A DNA stretch of 64,000 bases from an uncultured Candidatus Saccharibacteria bacterium (GTDB lineage Bacteria; Patescibacteriota; Minisyncoccia; Phycocordibacterales; UBA918). Of this stretch, positions 36,953 through 54,542 are shown in pieces. The position numbers and the translations under genes were made by a program. The stretch is from assembly GCA_964350645.1 (NCBI GenBank), contig CAYGJY010000002.1:161538-225537 (forward strand), given 5' to 3'. The stretch's first letter is position 1. Each line of letters opens with the position of its first letter. The notes under the pieces are model-generated. The model saw nothing but the letters and a program-made list of their open reading frames with translations. It ran no database searches and had not been told where the DNA came from.

Positions 36953-37006
36953 ATAAGTATCAAATTAGTGGCGCTATCCTACCACAGCAGTTCATTTTAG
37001 CAAGTC

Positions 37007-37675: not shown

Positions 37676-37812
37676 TGAATTTTCTATTCATTGTTCTTGG
37701 AATTTGTTTTGTGTAAAGAAACAAATTTGGAACTAAATTCACAATAGTCGTTACTTGCCTTTGTTCATGTATCTTGCAAAATAACCTATTTGTAGTATTC
37801 TTTCGGAGCTTT

Positions 37813-38226
37813 ATGGCAACAATCAATCAATTAACAAAAAATCGTCGACGCGATCCTGAAACGAAATCAAAGCGTGGAGCCCTCCACACTGGTTTCAATA
37901 AGATCAAGAACGCGCCAAACAAATACAACTCACCATTTAAACGTGGTGTGTGTACTCGTGTCACCACGAAGACTCCGCGTAAGCCGAACTCAGCGATTCG
38001 AAAAATCGCTCGTGTGCGTCTCACAAATGGTCAAGAAATTACTGCGTACATTCCTGGTATTGGGCATAGCCTACAGGAGCACTCAGTGGTACTTGTCCGC
38101 GGTGGTCGTGTGAAAGACATTGGAGTCAACTACACAGTTGTACGCGGTAAGTACGATGCTACCGGAGTAGACGCGCGCCGACGAGGCCGCTCACGCTACG
38201 GAGCCAAACGACCAAAGGCTGAATAG
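37813..38226 (+). CDS. rpsL: 30S ribosomal protein S12
   Basis: MATINQL...KPNSAIRK...[18 protein letters not shown]. Confidence 0.95.
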
Positions 38227-38376
38227 AGGCCTCATTATAACTAGTCTATATTCGCTTTAGATTATCGGACGCGGTTCAAGCAGTAATGCTTCGGAACCAA
38301 CGTATGCGAAGAATGAAAAACTGATTTGTCATTTTCTCATTCGCAATCTAACGCATTAGTAACCTAATCATTAGTC

Positions 38377-38850
38377 ATGCGACGACCAATTAAAAAACGA
38401 CCAGTAGTCAATCCAGACATTAAGTTTGCGTCAGTTGATGTGGAACGCCTCATTAACTATGTGATGCTTCGTGGTCAAAAAGAAACAGCTCGCAAAATTG
38501 TGTATGCTGCTTTTGAAGAAATTAAAAATGCCAAGGAAGGTGGTGGTGACCCAATCGAGGTTTTCAACACAGCTCTAAGAAACGCTGGTCCATCAATGGA
38601 AGTTCGCTCACGCCGGGTTGGTGGAGCCAACTATCAAGTGCCTCGTGAAGTTCGCCCTGAACGACGACTGTCACTCTCACTACGATGGCTGATCGGAGCT
38701 GCTCGCGGTGCCAAGGGTATCCCAATGCACAAAGCGCTCGCCAACGAAATTATGCTCGCAGCCAAGGAAGAAGGAGTAGCCGTGAAGAAGAAGGAGGATA
38801 TGCATAAGATGGCGGAGGCTAACCGTGCTTTCGCGCATTTTGCCTGGTAA
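38377..38850 (+). CDS. rpsG: 30S ribosomal protein S7
   Basis: Full-length S7 signature; conserved rpsL-rpsG order. Confidence 0.95.
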
Positions 38851-39056
38851 TTTAGGAGTCGTTAGACGAACTAAATTCCAGTTGCAAATGCGGTGATACC
38901 CCTTGCGGGTGCGCGCACTTCGCTTGGTAAGAAATTCCACAATTGGCGCTGCGCTTCGTTGCCGCACGAAAAATATTCTTCACCGTACCCCAAGTACGAC
39001 TCAGAATATTTTTCGCTAGCGCCTCGCGCAGCATCCAATTCTGAAATTCCTACATG

Positions 39057-39088
39057 AAAAAGCTCGCAGTTAACTGCGAGTTTTTTCG
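39057..39088 (+). terminator. Terminator ending the rpsL-rpsG transcript about 210 nt after rpsG
   Basis: ctcgcag ttaa ctgcgag followed by tttttt. Confidence 0.6.
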
Positions 39089-39238
39089 TGCAAACTTGGT
39101 AGTGCATTCCAAGATAAAATCAATGTTGAGTAACAAGTGTGCTAGAAGTTGTCTTTCTATTTGCCCAATGCTGTAGTTAGGAGTATGTTTTAAATATAAA
39201 CTCAGTCAGCATGAAGTGAGTTCAGAGTAAGAATATAT

Positions 39239-39898
39239 ATGTCAAAAGAAATTATTTTAGATAAAACAAAAAATGAAATTCGAGAAGTAGTCTGCATCAG
39301 ATGTGATAATACTACAAATCATATAGTTTGTGGATCAGTAAAATTAGAATGGCGCAACGAAGATATACAAGGATACGATATCTACGAAACAATACGTTGC
39401 TTAGGGTGTGACAATGTTTCTTTTCGCATTGCATCTGGAAATTCAGAAGACTACTACCACGATGACGAAGGTCATAGCTTTTATCCTGAAACTGAGGAAA
39501 TTTATCCCAGCCGTTTGATGGGTAGAGTGCCTCTTAAAGACATGTATTCTCTACCTGATAAGGTACGATTAATATATAAAGAGACTCATGCGGCATTATG
39601 TACAAAATTGAAAGTTCTAGCTGGAGTCGGCATAAGGGCATTAGTTGAAGCTGTGTGTTCAGAAGAAAAGGCGAAGGGAGGTAATCTTGAGAAAAAGATT
39701 GACGATTTAGTCGAGAAAAATATTCTTACAAAGAAAAATGCTGAAGTATTACATCGTACTCGTCTTTTGGGTAATAAAGCAGCACATGAGAGTAGTGCCC
39801 CCGCAGATTCTGAATTGGATGTTGCTTTTGATATTGTAGAAAATCTTCTTGAAACTGTTTATATTATCCCCAAAAAGGCTGAACGATTAAAATCGTAA
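39239..39898 (+). CDS. Zinc-ribbon plus DUF4145-like protein in a strongly AT-rich segment; defence-island type
   Basis: CIRC...C / CLGC Cys pairs; C-terminal ...LVEKNILTKKNAEVLHRTRLLGNKAAHES...DIVENLLETVY matches the DUF4145 pattern (R.LGN.AAHE); local GC about 30 percent. Confidence 0.55.
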   Translation: MSKEIILDKTKNEIREVVCIRCDNTTNHIVCGSVKLEWRNEDIQGYDIYETIRCLGCDNVSFRIASGNSEDYYHDDEGHSFYPETEEIYPSRLMGRVPLKDMYSLPDKVRLIYKETHAALCTKLKVLAGVGIRALVEAVCSEEKAKGGNLEKKIDDLVEKNILTKKNAEVLHRTRLLGNKAAHESSAPADSELDVAFDIVENLLETVYIIPKKAERLKS

Positions 39899-40014
39899 AT
39901 TTAGAATTATGTGTGCATATTTATACTAATTCTAATTAAAACTATAGGACAATAATCGTATAAAAGTTCTCGTTTGTTCGATAGTAAACTGGTATTTAGT
40001 TTATACTTACAAAT

Positions 40015-40362
40015 ATGAATACTCTTCTCAAGCTCGAAATGATTATACTGATAGTGCTGGCCGTGTGGCTGTTTAGTCTGATGGGTTTTGCCTGGTGGTG
40101 GTTTGCGGTGTTGTTTTTAGTGCCAGATGTTGGGATGATCGGGTATGTTGCTTCACCGAAGGTAGGGGCGTGGACATACAACCTCACGCATCACCTTGGT
40201 CTGGCGACGCTGATAATCATCGCCGGGTCTGAGCTGGCTATTCCGTGGGTAGAGCTCGCGGGCATCATTATGCTCGGGCACTCCGCCTTTGACCGAGTGC
40301 TTGGCTATGGTCTGAAGTACCCCGATGCATTTAAACACACGCATCTAGGTTGGCTTAAGTAG
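40015..40362 (+). CDS. Small polytopic membrane protein
   Basis: Three to four TM helices; Trp-rich. Confidence 0.4.
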   Translation: MNTLLKLEMIILIVLAVWLFSLMGFAWWWFAVLFLVPDVGMIGYVASPKVGAWTYNLTHHLGLATLIIIAGSELAIPWVELAGIIMLGHSAFDRVLGYGLKYPDAFKHTHLGWLK

Positions 40363-40404
40363 TTTTGTCTAAAAAAGAGACCTTTTCGGGTGTATAGTTA
40401 AAGT

Positions 40405-40719
40405 ATGAAAAACCTTATTAAAGAGCACATTGAGTATTTAAAAGATAATCCAGAAGGGTATTGGTTTAAGCGGAAGCTCTATGGCTACGGCTGGACACCA
40501 GCAACTAAAGAGGGTTGGGTGGTGACTCTAGGAGCTATTGCGGTGATTGTTGGTAACGCAGTGCGTTTTGAACGCGGTGGGTATGCCGACGGTGACGTTG
40601 TACTACAGATGTTGGCACCGACGTTCTTAGCTGTCGCCGTTTTGTTGTACTTTTGTTTTACAAAAGGTGAAAAGCCAAAGTGGCAGTGGGGCAGTGACAT
40701 TGCAGAAGATAAAGATTAG
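40405..40719 (+). CDS. Small membrane protein
   Basis: Two TM helices. Confidence 0.35.
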   Translation: MKNLIKEHIEYLKDNPEGYWFKRKLYGYGWTPATKEGWVVTLGAIAVIVGNAVRFERGGYADGDVVLQMLAPTFLAVAVLLYFCFTKGEKPKWQWGSDIAEDKD

Positions 40720-40767
40720 GTTTTTGGTCTTTGTTTTGCTATAAATAATCACCTCAAAAAACAGGAG

Positions 40768-41229
40768 ATGATGATGGATAGGCCATCGTGGTTGCCGCCT
40801 TATCGGTGGAAGTACCTGCTCCTCGCGTGGTTTTTTAACGGGGTAGCAGTGTTCATTATTAACCAAAACGAAGGAGGTGTCGCTGGAGCTAGCATGGCAG
40901 CACTTGTTCAGTTCGGCGTTTCGACTTTGGCTGGATATAGTGTTCCGTTCTGTCAAAAACATGTTTTTGACAGGCCAATTGCCAAAGCATATTTCTACGG
41001 ATCGCTCACTATGGCGTTGGTGATCGCCAGTGCTGGTGCGCTCGCTCACTTTATATTTCAAACGCCTGACTATTGGTCGACCGTCGCTTGGAACTTCTGG
41101 CTCAACCTAGTTGGCGGGTTTGTGTTGGTAAGCTGCAAGCGCTCGAATGCGTTTGTCACCCGTCGCCTACGACATTCAGTGGGTCTAAAGGTGGCAATGA
41201 CTTATTATCGGTTTTGGAAGAGGCTCTAG
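40768..41229 (+). CDS. Membrane protein of unknown function
   Basis: caggaga RBS; four TM helices. Confidence 0.4.
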   Translation: MMMDRPSWLPPYRWKYLLLAWFFNGVAVFIINQNEGGVAGASMAALVQFGVSTLAGYSVPFCQKHVFDRPIAKAYFYGSLTMALVIASAGALAHFIFQTPDYWSTVAWNFWLNLVGGFVLVSCKRSNAFVTRRLRHSVGLKVAMTYYRFWKRL

Positions 41230-41346
41230 TTGCGTGTGTATTCTGCGACTAGAGCCTCTGTGTTTTTGATTATACAAAGTGCAGAAAGCCGCCGGTAGAA
41301 GAGTGGGAGTCTTCATTTCCGACGGCCTTTTTAGTCAATCGTCGAG

Positions 41347-41697
41347 CTAGGTTTTTAGGCCTAACGTGGTGAAGCTAAATCCAATCAGTATTGACCCGCT
41401 TGATCCTGGTATGACGAATTTGATCAGTTGGTGGGTCACCACGCCGTTTGTCTCGGCTTTTCCAACGACTGACTGCCAGACTTTCCTGGCTTCCCCGCCA
41501 ATCGAAGTAATTTGGTGACACCCGTCTGGCAGAGTAAGACTCGATCGATACTGATCAAGCTTTGTCACCAGATCAGTAGCTTGCTCTAAGGTCTGGCAAA
41601 TCGTAGCGCCAGTGATCCATACCCATCTCCCGTCTTCAGCTTTGGCGGGTGAAGCGATACAGCTGAAGCAGAAAAATAACAATACAATCCGTCCCAT
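41347..41697 (-). CDS. Small secreted protein
   Basis: Signal peptide MGRIVLLFFCFSCIASPAKA. Confidence 0.4.
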   Translation of the reverse strand: MGRIVLLFFCFSCIASPAKAEDGRWVWITGATICQTLEQATDLVTKLDQYRSSLTLPDGCHQITSIGGEARKVWQSVVGKAETNGVVTHQLIKFVIPGSSGSILIGFSFTTLGLKT

Positions 41698-41767
41698 TTT
41701 GTCCTCCGGTATTCGTCTGTGGGTGATGAATTAGGTATACCTCTAAATGCTCAAAGCAGCAATACTT

Positions 41768-42853
41768 TTATTGATTAGGCCTTCCGCCAACGCGTTTGGC
41801 AACCTTGAGTAAGATAAAGAGAATCAGGAAGAGGAGGCTGAGTTGTACTAAGACCGGGTGACCAAGATAAAGTGAGAAGATGAGTAAGATGAAGGTGTAG
41901 ATTCGGTCGATGATAGTAACAAAGATGTCAGTGATTTTTTGGAACCAGCCGACAGAAGCCCCTTGTTCTTTTGGTGTGTCTTGGCTACGGGAAACAGAGC
42001 CAAAACCATTTTCGTTGGTTACAGTGTCGAGATTGCTGGCTGTTTCTGAGGTAGTGCTCGACGAGCTGGCTGATTCGCTTGGCGAATCAGCCAGCTCGTC
42101 TTCAGTCGGCGTGAGCACCTCCCCGTCAGTGCTCCGGGCACTGCGGTAGGCATCGATTCTTCTCTTTGTTTCATTGATACTTTCGGTAAAGGTAGACAGA
42201 ATGTTATCGGCCCGACTTTCGGTTAGGTACTGCTCGAGGCCGTCAGGTTCGCTACCGTTTTGATCAACATTCACGTTAGTTTCTTGTGTGGCCTCAGGTG
42301 GATCTTCGTTGTCTGATTCGGTTGCGGTCGTCTCTGGTGGTGCTGGATCGTTTGGATCAAGTGGGTCGGTGCCATCAGCTTTTTCTTTGTTGTCACTTAT
42401 ACCATCGTTGTCGTCGTCTTGATCATCAGTATTGCCGATACCGTCACTATCAGTATCACGATCGACAAAGACTGTGTCCTCAGCCAACGCTGATACAACT
42501 TCAGCAGTCTTGGTGGTGCTGCCGACTTTGCTTAACTCAATTCGTGAGAGTGACGCAGTGATAGTGTGTTCACCAAAGCTTGGCGCCCAGTCTGCCCAGG
42601 TTTCGATAATTCGGTTATCAAGGGCGGATACGTTGGTTCGTTCGATGAGTTCACCATTGTCATAGAATTCCACTCGACCAGATAAATCAGCACCGGTGTT
42701 GTTGCGGATGGCGACGTAGATCCTGGTGGTGTCACCAACAAATAGTACGTCACGGTCATACCACAGACCTTGTACAATCCCGGCATTAAATTCTTGGGCA
42801 GAGACAGCTGAAGCGGATATGATAAATATAAGGACGGCACATAGCCATTTCAT
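41768..42853 (-). CDS. Surface protein with thrombospondin type-3-like Ca-binding repeats and a C-terminal TM anchor
   Basis: Signal peptide; DTDSDGIGNTDDQDDDNDGISDN repeats; Ser-rich linker; C-terminal hydrophobic helices. Confidence 0.55.
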   Translation of the reverse strand: MKWLCAVLIFIISASAVSAQEFNAGIVQGLWYDRDVLFVGDTTRIYVAIRNNTGADLSGRVEFYDNGELIERTNVSALDNRIIETWADWAPSFGEHTITASLSRIELSKVGSTTKTAEVVSALAEDTVFVDRDTDSDGIGNTDDQDDDNDGISDNKEKADGTDPLDPNDPAPPETTATESDNEDPPEATQETNVNVDQNGSEPDGLEQYLTESRADNILSTFTESINETKRRIDAYRSARSTDGEVLTPTEDELADSPSESASSSSTTSETASNLDTVTNENGFGSVSRSQDTPKEQGASVGWFQKITDIFVTIIDRIYTFILLIFSLYLGHPVLVQLSLLFLILFILLKVAKRVGGRPNQ

Positions 42854-42895
42854 ATGATCTTAGTATACCGAAATTTCTCGTAAAATTATGATATT

Positions 42896-43555
42896 GTGAC
42901 CACAATGAAGATTACAGAGATTTATAAAAAATATCCGATCAACCAGGGCTTGCAGCGACATATGGTGCAGGTCGCAGCAGTTGCAAAGCAAATCTGCGAT
43001 CATATCTCAGTACCCGTCGATACTCATTTTGTGGTGAGTGTGTGCTTAGTTCATGACCTTGGTAATCTGGCTAAGATAAAGTTTGGCCTAGGTCATGATT
43101 ACCACTTTGAGCCCGAAGGTCTAACTTACTGGCAAGAGAAACAAACTGAAGTGTGGGAGACGATTAGTCGTGATGAACATGAAGTGACCAATTATTATCT
43201 GGATGATTTGGGTTTGTCACCTGAAATAAAAGCGGCAGTTAATGTAATGGGACTTTCAGAATTATCCGAGACAGCTATACATAGATCGACTGAACACCAG
43301 ATTATTACCTACGCTGATATGCGAGTAGGGTTGCACGGTATTGTCTCTGCCGGAGAGCGTATGGCTGATCTTAAAAGACGCTATGTGCCCGAACGCCATA
43401 CTGGGGCAGAGATCGATGAATGTACAGACGTATTGCTTGCTATGGAAAGGAAGTTGTTTGCTGGGTCAGGTATCAACCCGGCAGATATTACCGATGTTTC
43501 GACCGCTGAGATTCAGAAAGAATTGTTGGAGTGGAAGATTGAGACGGTGCAGTAA
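42896..43555 (+). CDS. HD-domain phosphohydrolase
   Basis: H...HDLGN...D motif set; GTG start at 42896 or ATG at 42905. Confidence 0.6.
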   Translation: MTTMKITEIYKKYPINQGLQRHMVQVAAVAKQICDHISVPVDTHFVVSVCLVHDLGNLAKIKFGLGHDYHFEPEGLTYWQEKQTEVWETISRDEHEVTNYYLDDLGLSPEIKAAVNVMGLSELSETAIHRSTEHQIITYADMRVGLHGIVSAGERMADLKRRYVPERHTGAEIDECTDVLLAMERKLFAGSGINPADITDVSTAEIQKELLEWKIETVQ

Positions 43556-43585
43556 TGGACCGGCGCCGAAGGTGCCGGTCATAGT

Positions 43586-45097
43586 TTATTGCCGCGCCTG
43601 TAACTTCTCAACTGGGGCAAAGTCATCGGTGAGAAGAATTTCAGAAGTTAAATCAAATGTAGTCAGGTCAAGTGCAAGGTTTTGCACAGTGCTTGTTCCG
43701 CCACCAGTGAAGGTAATGTGCTGGTCGGTAAAATTGATAGGAGCACCTCCTTTGCGGGCGACCAATATTACATTCTGCAACTGTGAGAGTTCGTTTTTTT
43801 CAATGGCATAGGCTCGTGTATTTGGAAACACTGCCAGTAGTGTTTTTGTGACTGATCCAAATAGTGATGGGATGCTTGTTTCTGGGATACCGACAAAGTT
43901 TACTAGTAAGACTCCCTCGTCATGTAAGTGTTCTGAAATTCGTTGATAAAACTCAAGAGTGGTCAAATGAAATGGGGCTGCCAAATCCGTCCCAAAGGCA
44001 TCAGCAAAGATGACGTCGTACCTCTTATTCGTCCCCTGTAGAAATACCCGCGCATCCATTGGGTAGTTGGTAATTCGCGAGGTGTCAGATAGATCGAAAT
44101 ATTCCTGAGCCAAATCAAATAAGATTGGCTCAATTTCAACAACGTCGATATTGAGTTCGGGATTTGCTGCGCTGAGCGTGCGCGGGATAGTATACGCTCC
44201 GCCACCGATTAATAAAAAATCCTCAGCTGAGGGTACTAAGATGTTATAGAATTCTGCAAACTGCGTGTAAGCAAACGGTAGTTCTTTTGAGGTAAGGTAG
44301 ATGGCGGAAGAGTTATTAGTATCACGGTTAAGTAGTCGGCCAGCCCGATTGTTTATCAAAACATCTCTGATTTTGATTGAGCTGTAGAGACCATCACTAT
44401 AATACAGATAAGAAGCCTGGTTACGTGTGTGGATGAGGTTGATGCTTCCGAGTAAGAGTATGCTGACACCAATGATTAGTGCTATCCAAATGAGATGTCG
44501 GACCTGTCTGAGATAGAGCGGCATTAGCAGACCAAGAATAATGAGGCAGGCACCTGATGTCATAATTGTATTTTGGACGCCGAGGGTGGGAATGAGCCAA
44601 AAGCCAGTGAGAAGACTACCCAAAATACTACCAGCAGTGCCCCAAAAAAAAGTTTTACCGACAACACTACCGATGTGTTCGGTTGGGGTATTGATTGATT
44701 GAATTTTTATAATGTACGGCGAGACTATTCCCAATAAAAAAGCCGGTACAAAGAATAGGGCTAGGCTAAAGACAAGAGGTCCGAGCTGTGGCCCGAGTTG
44801 TGCAGCGGCTGCGGGTAAGACAAAAAGGGCGACTAGCTCTAAGAGTAAAATCAAAACACCACTGAGGGTGATTATTTTGTACAGCTCAGATATAGATTGC
44901 TTTGAATCAGCCCGTTTACCGCCGTACCAATAACCGCAACTGAGGGCGGCGAGAATGATCGATAACACACTCGAAAAAACATAAAGTGATGAACCGTAAT
45001 AAGGTGAAAGTAGGCGAACCGCTGCAACTTCAAGAATAAGGACAGCTGCACCAGTAATAAATACGCTGACAAACAGGGCAGAATTTAGCTTACGCAT
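43586..45097 (-). CDS. Membrane-anchored spermidine synthase-like (PABS fold) protein
   Basis: N-terminal ~7 TM helices; C-terminal IGGGAYTIP, VDVVEIEP, DVIFADAFG motifs. Confidence 0.7.
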   Translation of the reverse strand: MRKLNSALFVSVFITGAAVLILEVAAVRLLSPYYGSSLYVFSSVLSIILAALSCGYWYGGKRADSKQSISELYKIITLSGVLILLLELVALFVLPAAAAQLGPQLGPLVFSLALFFVPAFLLGIVSPYIIKIQSINTPTEHIGSVVGKTFFWGTAGSILGSLLTGFWLIPTLGVQNTIMTSGACLIILGLLMPLYLRQVRHLIWIALIIGVSILLLGSINLIHTRNQASYLYYSDGLYSSIKIRDVLINNRAGRLLNRDTNNSSAIYLTSKELPFAYTQFAEFYNILVPSAEDFLLIGGGAYTIPRTLSAANPELNIDVVEIEPILFDLAQEYFDLSDTSRITNYPMDARVFLQGTNKRYDVIFADAFGTDLAAPFHLTTLEFYQRISEHLHDEGVLLVNFVGIPETSIPSLFGSVTKTLLAVFPNTRAYAIEKNELSQLQNVILVARKGGAPINFTDQHITFTGGGTSTVQNLALDLTTFDLTSEILLTDDFAPVEKLQARQ

Positions 45098-45177
45098 TGG
45101 CTAATAGTAGCAAACTTTATCGTCAGAGGAACGATGTGTGGTTGAGTTGTGCTGAGAATGCGCTAGGATAGAGCGCT

Positions 45178-46662
45178 ATGACACAGCCGCAAGGACTTAT
45201 TACCTTTAATGACGTATCGTACGAGCACGACGTCACCAAACCAATTTTGATTGAGTCGTCATTTTCGGTGCGCCGGGGCGCTAAGTTTACGTTGATGGGT
45301 CAAAACGGTGCTGGGAAAACTACACTCTTTAAATTGATTACTGGAGAGCATCAGCCAGATGAAGGCATGATCCATATTGCGACGCGTACCAGTATTGCGG
45401 TATCAAGACAAGTTATTCCGCGAGCAGAGCTTGAACTCACGTTGCGAGAATTTTTTGCCAAGTGCTTTACGGAGACCGTGTATGATATCGACCCGAAGAT
45501 TGATGCTATTTTGGAGGTGGTGAATTTAACACCGACAAATCCAGAGGTTGCAAAGAATTTTAAAGAGCGGATTATTGGGAGTTTTTCTGGTGGTCAGCAA
45601 GCGCGACTTCTACTTGCGTCAGCTTTGATTCAAAAACCAGATATTCTACTTCTTGATGAACCGACTAATAACCTCGACTATGAAGGAATTGAACATCTGA
45701 CCCAGTTTCTCAAAGACTACCGTCAGACAGTAATTGTGATTTCTCATGATTCTGATTTCTTGAATGCCTTTACTCACGGTGTGCTCTATCTCAATACCCA
45801 AACAAGAAAGATCGAACAATATAATGGAAACTATCACGACGTGGTTAAAGAAATTGGTGCTCAAGTAGAAAAAGAACGCCGGAAAAATGCGCAGTTAGAA
45901 AAAGAAATTCAAGCCAACAAAGACAAAGCTAACTTCTTTGCGAATAAAGGTGGCGGTATGCGTGCGGTTGCCAAGCGGATGCGTGAGAAAGTCGATGAAT
46001 ATGAAGATAACAAAGTTGAAGTGCGCAAAGAAGATCGAACAATTCGTGACTTCACTATCCCCACTCAGGCAGGTGTACCGCTCGACGTACTGAAGTTGAG
46101 CTCGTATCAAGTGATTAAAAACCATAACCCAAAAGTGGTCGAGTGTGACTTGACCCTTAAGCGTGGTCAGCATTGGCGTATCATTGGTCCAAATGGTATT
46201 GGAAAAACGACATTGCTTGAGTCATTAGCTTCAGGGCATGCGGCCGGTGAACACGTCGCTTCGGGAGTGAAGATTGGCTATTACCGGCAAGATTTTTCTA
46301 ACTTAGATTTTGAAGAAACAGTCGCGGCGTGTCTGATGAAGGCGATGGAGAGTAAGCTTGAGGAGAAAATGCGTAGTGTCGCTGCGGGGTATTTACTTAC
46401 TGGCGACGTGATTAAAACAAAGATCGGGTTACTCTCCGAAGGTCAGAAAGGTTTGGTCGCATTTGCTCGACTACAACTGCTCGAGCCAGGTTTGCTGATT
46501 CTTGATGAGCCGACCAATCACATCAATTTTCGACATATCCCCGTTATCGCTAAAGCGCTTCATGCCTTTGAAGGTGCTATGATAGTAGTCTCGCACGTTG
46601 AAGATTTTGTCGAACAGATTAGAATCGATGAGGTGCTAGATTTAAATAAGAAACATAAATAA
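45178..46662 (+). CDS. ABC-F family ATPase (two ABC domains, no TMD)
   Basis: GQNGAGKTT / LSGGQQARL / LLLDEPTN, then IGPNGIGKTT / LSEGQKGLV / LILDEPTN. Confidence 0.8.
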   Translation: MTQPQGLITFNDVSYEHDVTKPILIESSFSVRRGAKFTLMGQNGAGKTTLFKLITGEHQPDEGMIHIATRTSIAVSRQVIPRAELELTLREFFAKCFTETVYDIDPKIDAILEVVNLTPTNPEVAKNFKERIIGSFSGGQQARLLLASALIQKPDILLLDEPTNNLDYEGIEHLTQFLKDYRQTVIVISHDSDFLNAFTHGVLYLNTQTRKIEQYNGNYHDVVKEIGAQVEKERRKNAQLEKEIQANKDKANFFANKGGGMRAVAKRMREKVDEYEDNKVEVRKEDRTIRDFTIPTQAGVPLDVLKLSSYQVIKNHNPKVVECDLTLKRGQHWRIIGPNGIGKTTLLESLASGHAAGEHVASGVKIGYYRQDFSNLDFEETVAACLMKAMESKLEEKMRSVAAGYLLTGDVIKTKIGLLSEGQKGLVAFARLQLLEPGLLILDEPTNHINFRHIPVIAKALHAFEGAMIVVSHVEDFVEQIRIDEVLDLNKKHK

Positions 46663-46731
46663 TATGGCCAAAGGTCAAGATAAAAAGAAAGAGGTGAAGA
46701 AGCCAAAGAAAGACAAGGTGAAGAAATAAAT

Positions 46732-46768
46732 GAAACAGCGGGGCGCCTATGGCGCCCCGCTGTTTTTG
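46732..46768 (+). terminator. Terminator
   Basis: aaacagcggggcgcc tat ggcgccccgctgttttt. Confidence 0.6.
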
Positions 46769-46805
46769 TTGGCAGTTCATTGATTGTCATTTATACTGTC
46801 GCCCT

Positions 46806-47861
46806 ATGGAACATCGAACATTAGGCACAAGCAATATCAAAGTCCCGGCAATTTGTTTGGGGACCATGACATGGGGCCAGCAAAATACTGAGGCAGAAGC
46901 ACATGAGCAGCTTAGCTATGCCGTTGATGAGCGGGGCTTATATTTTTTAGATACTGCAGAAATTTATCCAATCCCGCCTGAGAAAGAAAAACAGGGTCGA
47001 ACTGAAACGTATATTGGCACGTGGCTTGCAAAGCGGGGAAAGCGTGATGATCTCATCATTGCGAGTAAGGCATGTGTTGCGCCACCAATGATGCGGACTC
47101 GGGATGCAAGTGTGGCAGCGCACTACAGTAAAGAGAGTATTCACAGCGCAATCGACGGCACACTCAAACGATTGCAGACTGATTATATTGATCTGTACCA
47201 AATCCACTGGCCTGAGCGTCCCACCAATTTCTTTGGTCAGCGGGGCTTTGCTGAAGATGTCGAACACGACTCAACACCGATTCGAGAAACCCTCGAAGCG
47301 TTAGCTGAACTCGTAAAATCTGGGAAGGTGCGACACGTTGGTATTTCAAACGAAACTCCTTGGGGGGTTTCGGAGTATCTGCGCCTAGCTCGAGAAGAAG
47401 GATTGCTGAAGATTGTGTCCATTCAAAACCAGTACAGTCTCACAAACCGCACATACGAAATTGGTTTAGCAGAAATCACTATGAAAGAACAGGTGAGTCT
47501 GTTGGCATACTCGGCCCTTAATATGGGAGTGTTGACCGGTAAGTATCTTGATGGAGCACGGCCTGAAGGTGCGCGATTTACCATGTTTGATCGAAATAAA
47601 GAACGTTACAATCCACCGTACGAGCACGCACAGTCAGTGATCAGAATGTACGTTGACTTGGCTAAGAAGTACGATCTTGATCCAGCGACGTTGGCTTTGG
47701 CATTTGCTACCAACCGAGCCTTCACCACCTCGACTATTATCGGTGCGACAACTATGGAACAACTTAAAGTCTGCATTGATGCTGGTGATGTGACATTGTC
47801 CGAAGAGATTATGAGCGAGATTGAACACATTCAAAAAGAACATCCAGACGTAACGACCTAG
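46806..47861 (+). CDS. Aldo/keto reductase (Tas-like)
   Basis: LGTSNIKVPAICLGTMTWG N-terminus and AKR core motifs. Confidence 0.8.
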   Translation: MEHRTLGTSNIKVPAICLGTMTWGQQNTEAEAHEQLSYAVDERGLYFLDTAEIYPIPPEKEKQGRTETYIGTWLAKRGKRDDLIIASKACVAPPMMRTRDASVAAHYSKESIHSAIDGTLKRLQTDYIDLYQIHWPERPTNFFGQRGFAEDVEHDSTPIRETLEALAELVKSGKVRHVGISNETPWGVSEYLRLAREEGLLKIVSIQNQYSLTNRTYEIGLAEITMKEQVSLLAYSALNMGVLTGKYLDGARPEGARFTMFDRNKERYNPPYEHAQSVIRMYVDLAKKYDLDPATLALAFATNRAFTTSTIIGATTMEQLKVCIDAGDVTLSEEIMSEIEHIQKEHPDVTT

Positions 47862-47869
47862 CTTAAAGA

Positions 47870-47908
47870 ACACAAAAACCGGCGAGCAAGGCTTGCCGGT
47901 TTTTGTGT
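47870..47908. terminator. Bidirectional terminator
   Basis: cacaaaaaccggcgagc aag gcttgccggtttttgtg. Confidence 0.65.
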
Positions 47909-47923
47909 TCTTCGCACCAGGGA

Positions 47924-48661
47924 TTAAAAAGCATCTAGTAAGATGCTCAGATCAGCGGTTGAAACCCGGCCGTCAAGGTTGAAATCCGAACGGAGATTGT
48001 TAGTCGCAAGGTGCCGCATAAAAATGCTGACGTCAGCTAGCGATTGGCGGCCATCTTCGTTAAGGTCTGGGCTCGGAGCTTCAGGCACAATTCGTACTGT
48101 TGGTCCAAGCAGGCTTTTCCCAAAGACGGTTTCTGACTGCATGGTTGTTTCATTGGTGATCGCAAAAATAGCGTCTACGGGGCTGGATAGCGGTGCGTCG
48201 GTACCTAAGCCATCGTGCTGAAGAATTCGCGCTTCTTTTAAACTGATAGCCGCGTCACCCGTTTCTTTGGTGGTAAAGATTACCGTTATGAGTGTATCTT
48301 CACCGACAAATCCACCAGATCGTGTGCTACCGCCAATGAAGTTAATTGTGCCTTCACCATTGCTATACCATGGTTCTTCTGCCCAGAGGTCAGCGATTGA
48401 GGTGTTATAGTCAATTTGTTTGACGGCCAGTTTATCTGCGTCAAAAAGAATGTCACCTTTGTATACATTTACTGGGATATCGCTTGCGACTTGGATTCTA
48501 ATTGTAAAGGTCTCGCCAGTTATGGCAGAGCCAGATGCAGGATCAATAAACATACTGGTACTAGGGGCGGTAATAGTGGCACCCATTAGCCAGCCACCAA
48601 CAGCAACTATACTGGCAATTAGGGTTGTAAAGGCTATACGACTCAAAGTAATGCTTGGCAT
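47924..48661 (-). CDS. Secreted protein with a cohesin-like N-terminal domain and a C-terminal dockerin-like pair of Ca-binding repeats
   Basis: Signal peptide; GETFTIRIQVASDIPVNVYKGDILFDADKLAV (cohesin-like); DLNEDGRQSLADVSIF...DFNLDGRVSTADLSILL (dockerin-like). Confidence 0.5.
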   Translation of the reverse strand: MPSITLSRIAFTTLIASIVAVGGWLMGATITAPSTSMFIDPASGSAITGETFTIRIQVASDIPVNVYKGDILFDADKLAVKQIDYNTSIADLWAEEPWYSNGEGTINFIGGSTRSGGFVGEDTLITVIFTTKETGDAAISLKEARILQHDGLGTDAPLSSPVDAIFAITNETTMQSETVFGKSLLGPTVRIVPEAPSPDLNEDGRQSLADVSIFMRHLATNNLRSDFNLDGRVSTADLSILLDAF

Positions 48662-48734
48662 AGATACTATAAGTATGCCATAGCGAAAGAGGCTCTGTCC
48701 GTAGTTTTTCTGAGGGTGTGTTTAGTAGTGATTG

Positions 48735-50804
48735 TTATTTTCGTTTCAGGGTTTTTGAAAGAATGATTGAGACGACGAAAATGAGGGCAGAAAGACCTAA
48801 AAACTTAAGATCAATCACACCACGTGAGATGCCGCCTGTTCGTAATTCTTCAACATCAAGTGAGGCTCCGACCGCCACAAAGGTAGCAATACCAAGTAGC
48901 GTACCGACGAAGTTTGCTAGGACAAACGGAATAAATTTTATCTTGAGAATTCCAGCGGCAAAACTGACTAGGTCAAAAGGAAGAAAAATGAGGCGCGTAA
49001 TCAGGACTGATTCAAAAGGATTGTCTCGCAGCGGTTGTATCCACGAACCGAGAGCTGTCTTTTCTAGCTTGAGATCACCACCAAAGAAGCGTCCAATGCC
49101 ATAGGCAGCAGCAGCTGAGATATTAGCGGCGATAATGGTCAGGAGCGTCCCAACCCAAAAGCCAAAGAAGACACCCGAGAGAATCGTCAGCGCAGTCCCG
49201 GGAAAAAAGACCAGTGGTCGCAGGGTGTACGCTGCGATGTAGATCAGTGCCCCCCATGCTGACAAGGCAATAAAATCAAAAATCACAAAAGCGGTTTCAA
49301 ATGCTGACAGGTTCTGGGCTTGTTGGTACATGTAGAGATAGTACAGACCAACTGCCCAGAGCGCCGCGACGATAACTTTCAAGGCGTGTTTTTTGACGAA
49401 GTGGGTAAGGTCGGTTTTGAGATGAGCGATTTGGGTCGCAAAGAAATAGTCACCGAGTTTTTTGATAATCAGTGAGTAGGTCGGGTAGGCGAAGATAGTG
49501 TTGCGCAGTTTCCACATCGAAATCTTTTGATCGATGGCGAGTGTGAACACGCTGAGGATTTCACCCGCTGCTGGACCAGCAATATGCGCACCAAGTACTC
49601 GGCCGCTGAGACGCTTTGCGATCACGATTGCGATGCCATCAGTAGTGTCTTCGGTTTTGGCCCGATCGTTGGCACTAAAAGGGGCTTCAATGCGAAAAAT
49701 GTTTTCTTCACCATAGTGCTCGAGTGCTTCCGTGTATGAAAGACCGACTTGCGCCACCTCGGGAGTGATATAGGTGACTTTTGGGACGGCTTTGTTGTCA
49801 CGCACTTTGAGAAGGCCTTTGCTGATTACCCGTGTGACCACTTGTCGAGCAATATTATCCGCGGTATGAGTGAACTTGAGACGCTGCGACACGTCCCCAA
49901 GGGCGTAGACTGATGCGTTGGTGGTGCGGTACTGGCTATCAACTTTGATACCGTAGGGTTCGCTCTGAATACCGGCGACTTCAAGACCATTTGGTAGGTT
50001 CGGTACTCGGCCAATCGCGACGAGCACTTTATCAAATTGGACTGACAATGATCCAGTCACTACTTTACCTTCTTTGCGGTCAAAAATCGCGACGCGATTT
50101 TTGACCTCGCTTAGATGCGCGTTCAGCTCAATCCTGATACCCAGTTCTTTAAACTTCCGCTGTACTATTGGACGGATAGCTGGGTCCTCCAGGCGGGCAA
50201 ACTCACTATCGATGGAGGCGATAGTGACGTGGCTACCGAGCATAGCAAACGCTTGACCAAGCTCCATGCCAATTGGTCCAGAGCCAATGACGAGTAGTTT
50301 CTCGGGGATACTTTTGAGGTCAAAGACGTTTTGGTTGGTGAGAACATCAGCGGGGTTGAGTCCGGGTACACTGATCATCCGTGGACTAGATCCAGTGGCG
50401 ATGATAGCTGTTTTAAAGGTGTAGGTAGCGTCGGCAACTTTAATAGTTTTTGTGCCAACAAATTCGGCTTCACCCATGATGACGTCGATGCCGATTTTCT
50501 CAAACACGTCTGGTGTCTCCTCGGCTAAGATCTCATCAATGATGTTACGAACGTAGGCAAACGCGTCGGTGCGAAAAGCTGCGCTTTTCACACCTTCACC
50601 CGCCACCTGCGTCGCCCGATGATACTCTCGCGCGTGATGCAAGAGTGCTTTGCTCGGCACACAGCCAGTGTTGGTACACTCACCGCCCATATGCTCACGT
50701 TCTATAAGAAGTACTTTCTTGCCGACTTTAGAGAAACCGACGGCTGAGGTAAGGCCGCCTGAGCCGGCCCCGATTACTATGACGTCGTAGTGTGTGTCTG
50801 ACAT
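48735..50804 (-). CDS. Fusion protein: class-I pyridine nucleotide-disulfide oxidoreductase (DLD/mercuric-reductase-like) plus a C-terminal DedA/TVP38 membrane domain
   Basis: GAGSGG FAD site, redox-active GGECTNTGCVPSK, second Rossmann GSGPIG; C-terminal about 220 aa with multiple TM helices and DedA-like segments. Confidence 0.7.
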   Translation of the reverse strand: MSDTHYDVIVIGAGSGGLTSAVGFSKVGKKVLLIEREHMGGECTNTGCVPSKALLHHAREYHRATQVAGEGVKSAAFRTDAFAYVRNIIDEILAEETPDVFEKIGIDVIMGEAEFVGTKTIKVADATYTFKTAIIATGSSPRMISVPGLNPADVLTNQNVFDLKSIPEKLLVIGSGPIGMELGQAFAMLGSHVTIASIDSEFARLEDPAIRPIVQRKFKELGIRIELNAHLSEVKNRVAIFDRKEGKVVTGSLSVQFDKVLVAIGRVPNLPNGLEVAGIQSEPYGIKVDSQYRTTNASVYALGDVSQRLKFTHTADNIARQVVTRVISKGLLKVRDNKAVPKVTYITPEVAQVGLSYTEALEHYGEENIFRIEAPFSANDRAKTEDTTDGIAIVIAKRLSGRVLGAHIAGPAAGEILSVFTLAIDQKISMWKLRNTIFAYPTYSLIIKKLGDYFFATQIAHLKTDLTHFVKKHALKVIVAALWAVGLYYLYMYQQAQNLSAFETAFVIFDFIALSAWGALIYIAAYTLRPLVFFPGTALTILSGVFFGFWVGTLLTIIAANISAAAAYGIGRFFGGDLKLEKTALGSWIQPLRDNPFESVLITRLIFLPFDLVSFAAGILKIKFIPFVLANFVGTLLGIATFVAVGASLDVEELRTGGISRGVIDLKFLGLSALIFVVSIILSKTLKRK

Positions 50805-50890
50805 GAAGGAGGAGTAAAGTTATGAATAGTTGCCTTTGATACGAGTATAGCAAGGAATTCTTTCAGATTTTGAGTATAAAAATAGGAAAA

Positions 50891-50920
50891 GCGCTCATCT
50901 AGGGAGGGAGATGAGCGCCA
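50891..50920 (-). terminator. Terminator for the minus-strand secreted-protein gene
   Basis: gcgctcatct agggaggg agatgagcgc, followed on the minus strand by ttttcctattttt. Confidence 0.5.
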
Positions 50921-51006
50921 ATCCGAATGCTTATTCGGTGCGCGACTCCTTTTCTAGTTGAGCGCTGGTGTGCGGCCCCTGCTGGTGCGGGACCGCGCGT
51001 TTTGGT

Positions 51007-51978
51007 TCATTCGGTCTCGGCGTCGATCAGGCCGATCCTGTTTGTCGCCCCGAGCTGCTCACGCAGGTCGAGAACGATTTTCAGGTAGGTCTCGACGAGC
51101 GGTAAGCCGCCTTCTTCTTTCCGACGCAGACCGAAGCGGACGTAGTAGGGGTCCGCGTTCCATCCAAGATGGGCTACTGTCCGCTCCCAACGGGAAGTGA
51201 CGGCACGGACGTCGTCGCTGGCCTGCTCCCAACGTGACTTCGCAAGGTCCCTTTCTTTTTCGGCGGCCTTAATAGCACGATCGCGAGCCATCTCATCGAC
51301 GTACTTGCCATCCCTTGCCACTTGGAGCGCCTCATTCCGCTTATCGTCTGAGGGGTATGTGGCCCGCGCCGCTGCACTGATTGCCTCCGATCGGGCTACT
51401 TCGTCGACATAGATAGCAGCTCCCGCTTCACCCACCTTGTCGATCTCGCTCCGGTACCGGCCATACAGTCGGGTTGAGCGATCTGCTGCCAGAAGCAGTT
51501 CGCTGTATGGCAAAGTGATTTCCGGCTTCATGCCGAGAGTGAGACTGTCCGCCAGAGTGGCGAGATGTTGGACGCAGGATGCGTATCTGTAGTTTTCCAG
51601 AAGGGCCATTTCGGACAGGACACTCTCCCGGTGTTGCTCCCAATAGTCCCAGAGGACAGTCGGGTCAGTCAGGTGATTGCGAGCTTCCTCGCGGAATTCA
51701 TCGATCACGAAATCGACGAATCCGCCCTCTTTGATCTGACGTTGTACGATGCCCTCAGCTTCGTTTGGGCCAGGGCATTGGAGAACGAGTTTTGCGATGA
51801 CCTCGTCCCCAATCATCCAGTTGATCAGCGGACCGATCGCTTTCGGCCAGGGCGATTCTGTTGAAACGGTCGCCGGGGCGTCCGACAGCAAAAAATCGAT
51901 CGTCTCAGCGTTTTGGTCCTGCGCGAAGGCAGTGCTGGCGGCGAATGCAACAACAGCTGCGGCAAGTGCTAATTTCAT
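51007..51978 (-). CDS. Secreted protein of unknown function encoded in a locally GC-rich segment
   Basis: Sec signal MKLALAAAVVAFAASTAFAQDQ; GC clearly above the neighbouring genes. Confidence 0.5.
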   Translation of the reverse strand: MKLALAAAVVAFAASTAFAQDQNAETIDFLLSDAPATVSTESPWPKAIGPLINWMIGDEVIAKLVLQCPGPNEAEGIVQRQIKEGGFVDFVIDEFREEARNHLTDPTVLWDYWEQHRESVLSEMALLENYRYASCVQHLATLADSLTLGMKPEITLPYSELLLAADRSTRLYGRYRSEIDKVGEAGAAIYVDEVARSEAISAAARATYPSDDKRNEALQVARDGKYVDEMARDRAIKAAEKERDLAKSRWEQASDDVRAVTSRWERTVAHLGWNADPYYVRFGLRRKEEGGLPLVETYLKIVLDLREQLGATNRIGLIDAETE

Positions 51979-52157
51979 GGCGTGTCTCCTAATAGCCAAT
52001 GATGAACCTAGTAGTCAAAAAACGTGTTGCGATAGAGAGGTGGTTCATTTGAACCTCTCTACCCTGCTAGTAAAATAGCATAAAAATAGACAAAAGTCAA
52101 TATACATGGCATAAAATAGAGGTTTTTGGTTATGGAGGTGGGGCGGGTGGTGTGGCG

Positions 52158-52196
52158 CTCCAGGCTGGCAAAAGCAACGCTTTTGCCAGCCTGGAG
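52158..52196. repeat. 39-nt perfect hairpin (18-bp stem, 3-nt loop) with no T-tract
   Basis: ctccaggctggcaaaagc aac gcttttgccagcctggag. Confidence 0.55.
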
Positions 52197-52361
52197 CAGC
52201 TGAAGACGGTTGCCATCGCTACTTAAATACCGTATGATAGCGCCGATTAGCCCAATTTGGGCTTGTTTCTATTTTGCGCTGAGTGCCCGGCGCCAAAGGC
52301 GCCGGGCTTCGCTGCATATAGGGAGAATTTATCATTAGTTATACATATATAAGTAAAGTTT

Positions 52362-54542
52362 ATGGCACGAGCATTTCCAATCGCAAAACTACGAAACTTC
52401 GGGATCGTAGCCCACGTTGACGCGGGTAAGACCACCACCTCTGAACGCATCCTTTTCTATACCGGGATGAGTCACAAAATCGGCGAGGTACACGACGGGG
52501 CAACCGTCACCGACTGGATGGAGCAAGAACGTGAGCGCGGTATCACCATCACCGCGGCGGCGATTTCTTGTAACTGGGCAAAAACCCTTGAGACAGATCG
52601 CAAGAACAAGGACAAGCAACACACCTTTAACATCATCGATACTCCAGGGCACATCGACTTTACCGCAGAGGTAAAGCGATCGATGCGTGTACTTGACGGT
52701 GCTGTCGTCGTATTCGACGGCGCGGCTGGTGTAGAGCCACAAACCGAAACCAACTGGGGCTACGCTGATGAAGCTGGTGTACCACGAATTTGTTTTGTAA
52801 ACAAAATGGACAAGCTGGGTGCTGATTACAACGCTTCAGTAAAGTCTATCGAAGAGCGACTCTCTAAAAAAGCTGTCCGGATTCAACTCCCGATCGGGGC
52901 AGAAGACGCACTCTCTGGTGTGGTTGATTTGATCACGATGAAGGCCTATCGGTTTGCTGGTGAGATGGGTATGGAGGTGACTGAAGAAGAGATTCCTGAG
53001 AATATGGTTGAAGACGCTAAGAAGTGGCGCGCTGAAATGATCGAACGCGTTGTTGAACACGACGACACGCTGATGGAAGCGTTTCTTGAAGGGACCGAGC
53101 CAACGCTTGAAGACCTCAAGAAGACCTTGCGAAAGGCGGTATTGGCTAACGAAATTTTTCCAGTCATGACTGGTTCAGCACTGAAGAACATCGGTGTGCA
53201 GCTCGTGCTTGACGCGGTAGTTGATTATCTGCCAGCACCAACTGACCTCCCACCAACGCACGGTCATGATCCAGATGATGAAGAAACTATTATCGAACGA
53301 CTGCCAACAGACGAAGACCCATTCAGCGCTCTTGTATTTAAACTACAGGACGACAAGTTCGTTGGGCAGCTGGCTTTCTTCCGGGTGTATTCAGGTACGG
53401 TGAAGTCTGGTTCATACATTTTGAACTCTTCAACGGGAAACAAGGAACGAATCGGACGAATTGTTCGTCTGATGGCTGACAAGCGAGAAGAAGTAGACGA
53501 AGTATATGCGGGCGAGATTGCGGCCGCTGTAGGGATCAAGGAAGTAAAGACATCGCACACTATTTGTGACGAAGCGAAGCCAATTGTACTCGAGCAAATT
53601 ACGTTCCCAGCCCCAGTCGTTGCTGTGCGTGTTGAGCCAAAGACTAAAAATGACCAAGAAAAAATGGGTGTAGCCTTAAAGCGCCTGTCAGATGAGGATC
53701 CGACGTTTGTCGTATCAACTGACGAAGAAACGCTCGAAACCATCATTGCTGGTATGGGTGAGTTGCACCTCGACATCATTGTTGATCGTATGAAACGAGA
53801 GTTTGGAGTAGAGGCCAACATTGGTCAACCACAAGTAGCGTACCGAGAAACAATCCAACGTGAAGCTGAAGCCGAGCATAAATACATTAAGCAGTCTGGA
53901 GGACGCGGACAGTACGGACACGTCAAGATTCGCATCAAGCCACTGGTGCCGCTCGCGAAAGATGAAAACGGGGAAGATGAGAAGGTTGCTAAGAACGTTA
54001 CTCGCGATGATCACTTTGAATTCATCAACAGCATTAAGGGAGGAGTCATTCCACAGGAATACATTCCAGCTGTCATGAAGGGAGCTAAAGAAGCGATGGG
54101 TCGCGGATTTGTCGCTGGCTATAAAATGGAAGATGTATCAGTTGAACTCTTTGATGGTTCATTCCACGATGTTGACTCGAGTGAAATCGCCTTTAAGTTG
54201 GCTGGTATTAACGCCTTTAAGGATGCAGCTGCAAAGGCGAGTCCGGTTATCCTTGAGCCAATCATGAAGGTTGAAGTACGAACACCAGATGAATACATGG
54301 GAGACATTCAAGGGAATATTTCATCGAAGCGCGGTCAGATTGAAGGCTCAGAAGAAATGGGAGGCAAGACAATCGTCAACGCCAAGGTGCCACTATCAGA
54401 AATGTTTGGTTACACCAACTCACTGCGTTCAATGACTCAAGGTCGTGCGAGTATGACGATGGAGTTTGATCACTATGAAGTGGTCCCACCAAACGTGGCT
54501 GAAGAGATTAAGAAGGCGAGAGGGGTGAAAGCAGAGGCATAA
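52362..54542 (+). CDS. fusA: Elongation factor G
   Basis: [15 protein letters not shown]...; full-length EF-G. Confidence 0.95.

Follow-up and report, generated by a model that had tools for sequence, protein, structure and literature searches.

A 13.5-kb gene-filled interval between rpsG and fusA in a Paceibacteria-like genome, probably an old and clade-wide break of the str operon

The canonical bacterial str operon reads rpsL-rpsG-fusA-tuf and is followed by the S10 operon, and few gene orders in bacteria are as conserved as those of ribosomal-protein gene clusters. Here, we describe a stretch of 64,000 nucleotides from contig CAYGJY010000002.1 (the window, whose positions are used throughout) in which rpsG and fusA are separated by a long interval filled with genes. 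The window keeps the canonical order and orientation of rpsL, rpsG, fusA, tuf, rpsJ, rplC, rplD, rplW, rplB, and rpsS, but the cluster is cut in at least 3 places: rpsG and fusA stand 13.5 kb apart, rpsJ and rplC 3.2 kb, and rplB and rpsS 0.7 kb. The largest interval measures 13,511 bp and contains exactly 13 open reading frames (ORFs) of at least 100 aa in the ORF list of the window, in agreement with an earlier sequence-only reading of this DNA, which had reported an operon interrupted by 13.5 kb and 13 genes. Further departures from the canonical arrangement are opposite-strand genes in the gap, a terminator-like hairpin after rpsG, and a separate putative promoter and leader for fusA (Table 1); in addition, rpsL is preceded by SOD, MBL, rpmB, and M50 peptidase genes and not by rpoBC. 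The best matches of EF-G in a one-genome-per-species collection were throughout metagenome-assembled genomes from the candidate phyla radiation (CPR)/Patescibacteria (reaching 85% and 76% identity, with Kaiserbacteria-like genomes following at about 70%), and genes elsewhere in the window (PilB/PilC, ComEC, RecJ, RNase Y, TIM, and PGK) are typical of this group. Judged by its sequence, the window is part of the genome of an ultra-small, Patescibacteria/Paceibacteria-like bacterium.

The order M50-rpsL-rpsG is kept in relatives. The sequence-only reading had placed a terminator after rpsG, and a hairpin followed by a T-run was indeed found at 39063-39086. The terminator scan reports it on the minus strand only, because the A-run and the T-run on the plus strand lengthen the stem. 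We propose that this hairpin serves as the end of the rpsL-rpsG transcript.

We compared the interval with 2 sets of relatives, whose loci are referred to by L numbers. For the more distant set, the window proteins were mapped onto 80 genome loci and the spacers were then measured. The rpsG-fusA spacer, visible in 68 loci, had a median of 89 bp and a maximum of 7.4 kb, being shorter than 1 kb in 59 loci and at least 1 kb in 9. The corresponding spacers were expanded to at least 1 kb in 25 of 51 loci for fusA-tuf (median 989 bp, maximum 6.7 kb), in 9 of 45 for rpsJ-rplC (median 149 bp, maximum 4.8 kb), and in 2 of 29 for rplB-rpsS (median 2 bp, at least 500 bp in 5, maximum 1.7 kb), and the genes rpsL-rpsG, tuf-rpsJ, and rplC-D-W-B were tightly spaced. 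These spacer lengths therefore describe a lineage with a few recurrent "soft" junctions, namely rpsG/fusA, fusA/tuf, rpsJ/rplC, and rplB/rpsS. The cargo found at the expanded junctions of relatives is ordinary and unrelated between genomes, and includes NAPRTase with NAD synthase, a giant subtilase, a Mur ligase, and a type IV secretion system (T4SS) coupling protein.

Closer relatives were collected with the ABC-F ATPase gene in the middle of the gap as bait against metagenome contigs, so that flanks of 10 kb cover the entire interval. This gave 80 loci with ABC-F orthologues at 70-79% identity. rpsG lay upstream of ABC-F in 19 of the 80 contigs, at 1.6-5.5 kb, and fusA lay downstream in 16, at 0.4-8.1 kb; one or both of them were found beside ABC-F in 27 contigs. 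Both were present in 8 contigs, where the whole gap spans 7.4-14.3 kb, a range that includes the 13.5 kb of the window. The loci linked to the str genes resemble the window more than most of the genome set does, with identities of 75-87% for rpsG and 76-87% for EF-G. All sampled loci with an EF-G at least 76% identical and a visible junction are split.

ORF clustering of these loci revealed a recurring order, SOD - MBL - rpmB - M50 - rpsL - rpsG - variable part - GH15-like - unknown - ABC-F - i03/GIY-YIG - further genes - PyrRedox-VTT (minus strand) - glutamate dehydrogenase - fusA. Six of the 13 gap genes of the window recur in the same interval, encoding ABC-F, i03, the aldo-keto reductase (AKR), the PyrRedox-VTT protein (PRV), the TSP3 protein, and the dockerin-like protein, and the remaining 7 (i01, i02, i04, i05, i07, i08, and i13) had no homologue in this interval of any sampled relative. 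The synteny of the rpsG-fusA junction thus speaks on both sides of the earlier proposal of an island, which would predict that relatives lack these genes here: distant relatives do lack them and keep rpsG and fusA adjacent, the gap content is a mosaic, and the edge genes are absent from this interval in relatives, but the core genes are in place across the clade.

The right border of the variable DNA is formed by a putative promoter and leader of fusA. When the 240 nt located 5′ of fusA were aligned among the closest loci, similarity ended to the left of this conserved module, which has the consensus GGTTGCYG-N17-GTATAGT. A strict regular expression detected TTGCYR-N17-TATAGT at a distance of about 120-270 nt upstream of fusA in 15 of the 19 loci whose EF-G is at least 76% identical, as opposed to 1 of about 70 loci in which this identity does not exceed 71%; relaxed matching combined with the alignment raised the count in the clade to 17 of 19. 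The AT-rich motif TTATACATATATAAGTAA, allowing at most 2 mismatches, was detected in 12 of the 19 clade loci and in 0 of the more distant loci. The module does not depend on the gene upstream and was found even in L002, where the gap is 2.2 kb. Kept whatever the upstream gene is, L002 included, the module argues more strongly than any other observation for an old break common to the clade and for an autonomous fusA-tuf-rpsJ unit. The site at 52210-52238 would act as the promoter. The fusA leader had no Rfam match at the gathering threshold, and the E-value mode gave generic hairpin and terminator matches far below threshold. We also observed that TTATACATATATAAGTAA, at 5-14 nt before the ATG, stands where an obvious Shine-Dalgarno sequence would be.

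Together, these results make it quite probable that the interval represents an old, clade-wide break of the str operon, which is now a zone tolerant of gene flux between 2 transcription units, and not a discrete recent island. We favour an old rearrangement because the core of the interval is kept across the clade and only the 2 edge genes have the look of recent additions. The separation of rpsL-rpsG and fusA-tuf-rpsJ into two transcription units would date to the ancestor of the clade (EF-G at least about 76% identical). The rpsL-rpsG unit would now close with a structured 3′ hairpin element and then an intrinsic terminator, and fusA would have gained a sigma-70-type promoter for itself, together with a short leader hairpin that resembles a terminator and an initiation region that is AT-rich and conserved. 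With the polarity constraint gone, the interval could house ordinary chromosomal genes; it would have been stocked with semi-conserved ones, among which ABC-F is constant and i03, the GIY-YIG protein, the GH15-like protein, PyrRedox-VTT, glutamate dehydrogenase, and the aldo-keto reductase are frequent companions. Gain, loss, and shuffling of genes would have followed lineage by lineage, chiefly at both edges, the latest layers in the window being a RAZR/PD-T7-4-like gene beside rpsG and the secreted ORFan i13 beside fusA.

Several points weigh against this interpretation. The bait was ABC-F, so the contig sample is biased to genomes that carry it, and the clade is defined by bands of EF-G identity only, with the direction and number of events being what we infer from them. 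The gap of L002 (EF-G 76%) is short and lacks ABC-F, and in L001 (EF-G 85%) unrelated genes of NAD synthesis take up 5.4 kb upstream of fusA. A terminator-like hairpin stands 3′ of rpsG in 14 of 30 split versus 7 of 40 contiguous loci, in sequences of unequal length. Finally, a neighbour-joining tree of 81 ABC-F orthologues separated a tight group that is always linked to the str genes from a diverse group with the window, L086 (where the gene follows rpsG), and loci linked to typA/bipA. Because the window ABC-F groups with typA-linked copies, the gene would have been relocated one or more times, and its place beside the str genes may or may not be the ancestral one.

If the favoured interpretation holds, one Paceibacteria clade has a ribosomal cluster cut at several recurrent junctions, with fusA under its own promoter and leader and an ABC-F gene long housed between rpsG and fusA. 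This would be a concrete case of the dismantling of a "frozen" operon in reduced genomes, and a caution that operon interruption need not mean a recent island. The binning and placement of CPR genomes by 16 syntenic ribosomal proteins routinely assumes contiguity. Our literature searches on the synteny of the str operon or of ribosomal operons in Patescibacteria/CPR brought up nothing on this point.

Table 1. Features of the rpsG-fusA interval and of its flanking genes, in window positions.
Feature	Position	Strand	Evidence and remarks
rpsL (S12)	37774..38226	+	Pfam PF00164, E = 5e-31; opens the putative upstream transcription unit
rpsG (S7)	38377..38850	+	Pfam PF00177, E = 4.5e-55; left anchor of the split
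rpsG 3′-end remnant	38905..38930	+	about 26 nt including stop (..GCGCACTTCGCTTGGTAA); 55 nt past the real rpsG stop; from alignment with rpsG ends of relatives
Long-hairpin repeat element	38935..39048	+	114 nt; 3′ region of rpsG; found by aligning DNA downstream of rpsG
Terminator-like hairpin, bidirectional, intrinsic type	39063..39086		CTCGCAG-TTAA-CTGCGAG then TTTTTT, within palindrome 39053-39090
i01, RAZR/PD-T7-4-like	39239..39898	+	Cys4 zinc ribbon and DUF4145 (HEPN); Pfam DUF4145 E = 2.3e-16; GC 0.359, GC3 0.25, z = -3.2
i02, DUF4260 protein	40015..40362	+	Pfam PF14079 E = 3e-41; GC3 0.61, z = +2.3; cluster singleton
i03, small conserved protein	40405..40719	+	tblastn 41-51% identity in about 17 loci; cluster of 15 by stricter clustering
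i04, hypothetical	40768..41229	+	no family match; cluster singleton
i05, hypothetical	41347..41697	-	no family match; cluster singleton
i06, TSP3-repeat protein	41768..42853	-	probably secreted; Pfam PF18884; 4 loci in same interval
i07, hypothetical	42896..43555	+	weak HD-domain likeness, NCBIfam HDIG E = 1e-3; cluster singleton
i08, fused MFS/spermidine synthase	43586..45097	-	NCBIfam NF037959 254.6 bits; largest window-specific gene, typical composition
ABC-F ATPase	45178..46662	+	494 aa; two Pfam ABC_tran domains, no transmembrane domain; conserved gap resident
Terminator-like hairpin, strong, bidirectional	46733..46765		15-bp stem with 11 G-C pairs; after ABC-F
Aldo-keto reductase (AKR), NADP-dependent	46749..47861	+	Pfam PF00248 E = 1e-67; NCBIfam PRK10625 401 bits
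i11, dockerin-like	47924..48661	-	probably secreted; Pfam PF00404 E = 8.5e-5; 55%-identical homologue in same interval of L148
PyrRedox-VTT (PRV)	48735..50804	-	pyridine-nucleotide-disulphide oxidoreductase fused to VTT/DedA membrane domain; Pfam PF07992, PF02852, PF09335
i13, ORFan with signal peptide	51007..51978	-	GC 0.575, GC3 0.64, z = +3.1; N-terminus MKLALAAAVVAFAASTAFAQ
Palindrome, perfect 19-bp arms	52157..52197		just upstream of the putative fusA promoter
fusA promoter-like site	52210..52238	+	TTGCCA-N17-TATGAT; right border of variable DNA
Leader hairpin, G+C, with U-tract	52249..52272	+	attenuator-like, promoter-proximal; compensatory changes among relatives
AT-rich motif TTATACATATATAAGTAA	52339..52356	+	5 nt before fusA ATG; conserved
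fusA (EF-G)	52362..54542	+	Pfam and TIGR00484 at 1029 bits; right anchor, first gene of the putative fusA-tuf-rpsJ unit
tuf	54827..56014	+	Pfam; 3′ of fusA
rpsJ	56038..56394	+	Pfam; 3′ of tuf

The constancy of ABC-F raises the alternative that the interval is an extended translation-factor locus, in which ABC-F would have been recruited to the str genes for work with the ribosome, EF-G, or EF-Tu and held there by selection for co-regulation, the other genes being passengers. ABC-F proteins such as EttA, Uup, YbiT, and ARE-ABCF are ribosome-binding translation factors, and in the window ABC-F is matched best by NCBIfam models that all belong to ABC-F families. It is the sole constant resident of the interval, and in L159 it lies 442 bp upstream of fusA. 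The same ABC-F is found 0.6-8 kb from typA/bipA, which encodes another translational GTPase, in a further subgroup (L081, L083, L084, L087, L088, L089, L094, L101, and L114), and on sequence grounds this appears to be a second, independent tie of ABC-F to such a gene. A different, 556-aa ABC-F subtype lies between rpsG and fusA in the distant CPR genome L073 (5508-7178; EF-G 58%), a placement that arose independently; Pfam reported the ABC_tran_Xtn linker for this protein and not for that of the window. Such recurrent ties to the genes of translational GTPases would suit, but do not prove, a housekeeping function of ABC-F at the ribosome. Against recruitment for co-regulation, kilobases of DNA and opposite-strand genes separate ABC-F from rpsG and fusA, and a strong terminator-like hairpin follows it, which together make co-transcription with the str genes unlikely. 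Moreover, the position of ABC-F relative to its neighbours varies and the linkage could be merely historical, and the score of the ribosomal-protection-like model NF000355 (313 bits) is under the curated cutoff of 380. We regard the translation-factor locus as possible, with a chance clearly short of even. In the typA-linked subgroup, a small GIY-YIG protein is often encoded 3′ of ABC-F.

The structured element that follows rpsG suggested a further possibility. The RNAalifold analysis of 12 copies gave 4 nested helices with compensatory changes at 21 of 28 pairs. A covariance model retrieved 34 copies from 22 sources, 30 of them in sense orientation, and scored the window copy at 116.8 bits. 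In the alignment of the 34 copies, which was fitted to the model, 88.8% of cells were paired compared with 57% after shuffling and about 40% after sliding, and double changes occurred at 28 of 28 pairs. Copies with an identifiable upstream gene start 0-5 nt past the stop codon of rpsG, rpsL, tuf, rpsJ, or rpmB, or 14 nt past that of fusA. Those of the window, L002, and L151 lie 84-101 nt past the rpsG stop. The window hairpin starts 4 nt past the stop of the rpsG remnant and not at the real rpsG stop, and the remnant suggests, from its alignment, a scar of recombination or insertion at the tail of rpsG, marking the left border of the interval.

The window contains a single copy in its 64 kb. 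L014 has 5 copies in 22 kb (including 9111-9227, 12157-12259, 17343-17458, and 18379-18493), and L109 has copies at 5108-5220, 5864-5977, and 20484-20597. At the orthologous site after rpsG, the hairpin persists in at least 12 genomes. Copies cluster partly by genome and partly by position, from which it follows that the family spreads inside genomes and is also retained at orthologous sites. It resembles the REP/BIME- and MITE-like palindromes in being an imperfect long hairpin that is extragenic, multi-copy in some genomes, and located within or at the ends of highly expressed operons, but differs from them in its nearly constant sense orientation right after a stop codon, its conserved internal loops, and its orthologous persistence with compensatory changes. 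Neither a transposase linked to the hairpin (such as RAYT) nor target-site duplications were noticed in the loci examined, where no systematic search was made, and no Rfam family corresponds to it: in the whole window only a tRNA passes the gathering threshold, and the E-value mode gave generic hits far below it. The family could be a REP/MITE-like repeat or a 3′-UTR RNA element. We tentatively raise the rather doubtful proposal that it is an undescribed structured-RNA family of Paceibacteria, whose members would be 3′-end or processing modules separating the str/S10 cistrons, and that the junctions bearing them would be repeated insertion sites, including that of the clade-wide ABC-F placement. 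Absent from the catalogues and associated with the 3′ ends of translation genes, this hairpin repeat is a lead in its own right, and follow-up would be best spent on it and on the fusA leader.

The sequence-only reading had described the interval as an accessory island acquired stepwise, which amounts to a recent genomic island that this genome built up at its rpsG-fusA junction through horizontal transfers. The compositional extremes on which it drew are real. The segment 50.95-52.0 kb, in the part of the interval that had been called GC-rich, has 55-62% GC and the highest 1-kb value of the window, and 39.1-40.0 kb has 31-40% GC in 300-nt windows and the lowest 1-kb value, which at 35.1% is nearer 35% than the 30% first given. 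We computed GC, GC at third codon positions (GC3), and synonymous-codon likelihood for each of the 68 window genes. Only the first and the last gap ORFs, i01 (z = -3.2) and i13 (z = +3.1), were GC outliers, and the other 11 of 13 gap genes were native in composition, with an absolute z of at most 1.3 for GC. Windowed GC and codon usage thus set apart the edge genes and not the interval as a whole.

The first of the edge genes, i01, is of a defence type and occurs in mobile contexts elsewhere. PD-T7-4 has been characterised as RAZR, a zinc-finger-HEPN RNase that becomes active on assembly around phage ring proteins and has catalytic R146 and H154 (Nature 2026, PMC13017515). i01 resembles RAZR in its N-terminal Cys4 zinc ribbon, its C-terminal DUF4145 HEPN domain, its length of about 220 aa, and the R175-x7-H183 spacing, which equals that of R146/H154 in RAZR (PMC13017515). 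In 37 of 37 homologues, C19, C22, C54, and C57 (as C-x2-C pairs), R175, N179, and H183 were invariant. The likeness, drawn from sequence and model, is qualified by a modest match to PADLOC PD-T7-4 (PDLC04109; E = 7.9e-9, 33 bits, profile positions 14-169 of 211), by a search of PDB with the i01 sequence that returned no meaningful match, and by weak E-values for the fold. The AlphaFold2 model (pLDDT 89.5) has a beta-rich N-terminal half, and its top Foldseek matches in PDB were the HEPN toxins 7ae6, 5yep, 6m6u, and 1ylm, with probabilities of 0.87-0.99 and E-values of 0.03-0.1. There were 174 homologues, up to 82% identical, the few named ones belonging to Parcubacteria/Paceibacterota, and in 3 genomes examined among other Paceibacteria they occupied 3 differing loci. 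Given these differing loci and the PD-T7-4-like features, i01 would be a defence gene moving within the phylum and recently placed beside rpsG, with a predicted abortive-infection RNase function. The family is a lead in itself, as it is widespread in Parcubacteria, whose phage defence is poorly known.

In two Paceibacteria, the i01 homologue abuts an upstream Hypoth_Ymh (PF09509) gene with a 1-nt spacer (L165:5247-6657 and L167:5298-6657), which suggests, from gene arrangement, a two-gene module of Ymh and the RAZR-like protein. One of these 2 Ymh-linked homologues stands beside a large serine recombinase, a Schlafen-like protein, and a ParB-methyltransferase. The window i01 has no Ymh partner.

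At the other edge, i13 matched only itself, both among 5.8 billion clusters and when 1.84 billion representatives were scanned exhaustively with HMMER. Neither i01 nor i13 was in this interval in any sampled relative. The largest window-specific gene, i08, has homologues that are at most 60% identical, save for a 99%-identical copy from the same population, and the few named ones are Patescibacteria, Kaiserbacteria, or Paceibacterota. Transfer of i08 from outside the phylum was rejected on this ground, and from its matches we read it as native to the phylum but probably relocated.

Taken as a whole, the interval shares with genomic islands and integrative elements the appearance of a multi-gene insert when compared with distant relatives, where rpsG and fusA are adjacent, as well as end genes of odd composition, one defence-type gene, and 7 of 13 genes without a same-interval homologue in the sampled relatives. 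It differs from them in its mostly native composition and in a core conserved in place, since up to 27 related contigs have the genes for ABC-F, PRV, AKR, i03, and the TSP3 and dockerin-like proteins in this interval, and the fusA promoter module is common to the clade. Pfam, NCBIfam, and PADLOC scans detected no integrase, recombinase, or transposase in the 13 gap ORFs, there is no tRNA in the gap to serve as an att target (the sole tRNA of the window is at 8856-8927), and att-like direct or inverted repeats at the borders were at chance level only, none of those that span the boundaries surpassing 20 nt at 80% identity. A recent island is therefore improbable. The notion of stepwise acquisition was right in spirit, given the flux at the edges and the mosaic content, but the island label is wrong for most of the content.

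The split was also examined in Logan assemblies. A 15.2-kb contig made by another assembler (run ERR3534981) is 100% identical to window positions 36912-52103 and includes M50, rpsL, rpsG, and all 13 ORFs, and as this contig is independent, the left junction and the 13 ORFs are not an artefact of one assembly. Two short contigs of run ERR3534985 match 38748-40471 and 50841-52103. The i13-fusA junction (52103-52362, the last approximately 260 nt before fusA) lies outside Logan contig coverage. That the contig is a chimera, in which an rpsL-rpsG fragment, unrelated DNA, and fusA were put together, is highly unlikely and was rejected as the main explanation on the identity of the Logan contig and the 8 related contigs that carry rpsG-ABC-F-fusA in one piece, to which the PRV-fusA adjacency in L117, L134, and L154 and the conserved fusA promoter module right of 52103 can be added, even though the source is probably a metagenome-assembled genome and the right junction has no confirmation outside the window's own assembly. 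The Logan assemblies of both runs end at the same base, 52103, which could reflect strain heterogeneity or k-mers in common with co-occurring relatives. In run ERR3534985, the i13 segment and the i01-i02 segment are separate short contigs, which could mean that these cassettes vary in presence/absence, or no more than that coverage was low.

Among the remaining core genes, i03 always adjoins ABC-F in relatives. PRV is a divergent upstream neighbour of fusA that is conserved in the clade, with homologues 54-64% identical between ABC-F and fusA in 10 loci (L117, L124, L128, L129, L134, L135, L141, L146, L154, and L157) and a weaker one (34%) downstream of ABC-F in L138. AKR was found in 5 loci, close behind ABC-F in L108, L124, and L128 and about 6-7 kb downstream in L099 and L118; its real start is probably at about 46806, and the protein has 351 aa in the Logan gene call. 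i06 has homologues with 38-48% identity, which in L002 and L086 directly follow rpsG and in L113 are located upstream of ABC-F.

The other junctions of the cluster were also inspected. The fusA-tuf spacer is the most frequently expanded junction of the wider group (e.g., L006, L011, L017, L024, L029, and L035) and measures only 284 bp in the window. The second interruption of the window, between rpsJ and rplC (56395-59575, 3.2 kb), contains 4 minus-strand ORFs of at least 90 aa, one of which is TrpR/YerC-like (57365-57781, minus strand) and has its sole homologue among the fetched loci upstream of rpsL in L011. The third, between rplB and rpsS (62149-62859, 711 bp), holds a minus-strand ORF of 106 aa (62212-62532) with a 62%-identical homologue in L115.

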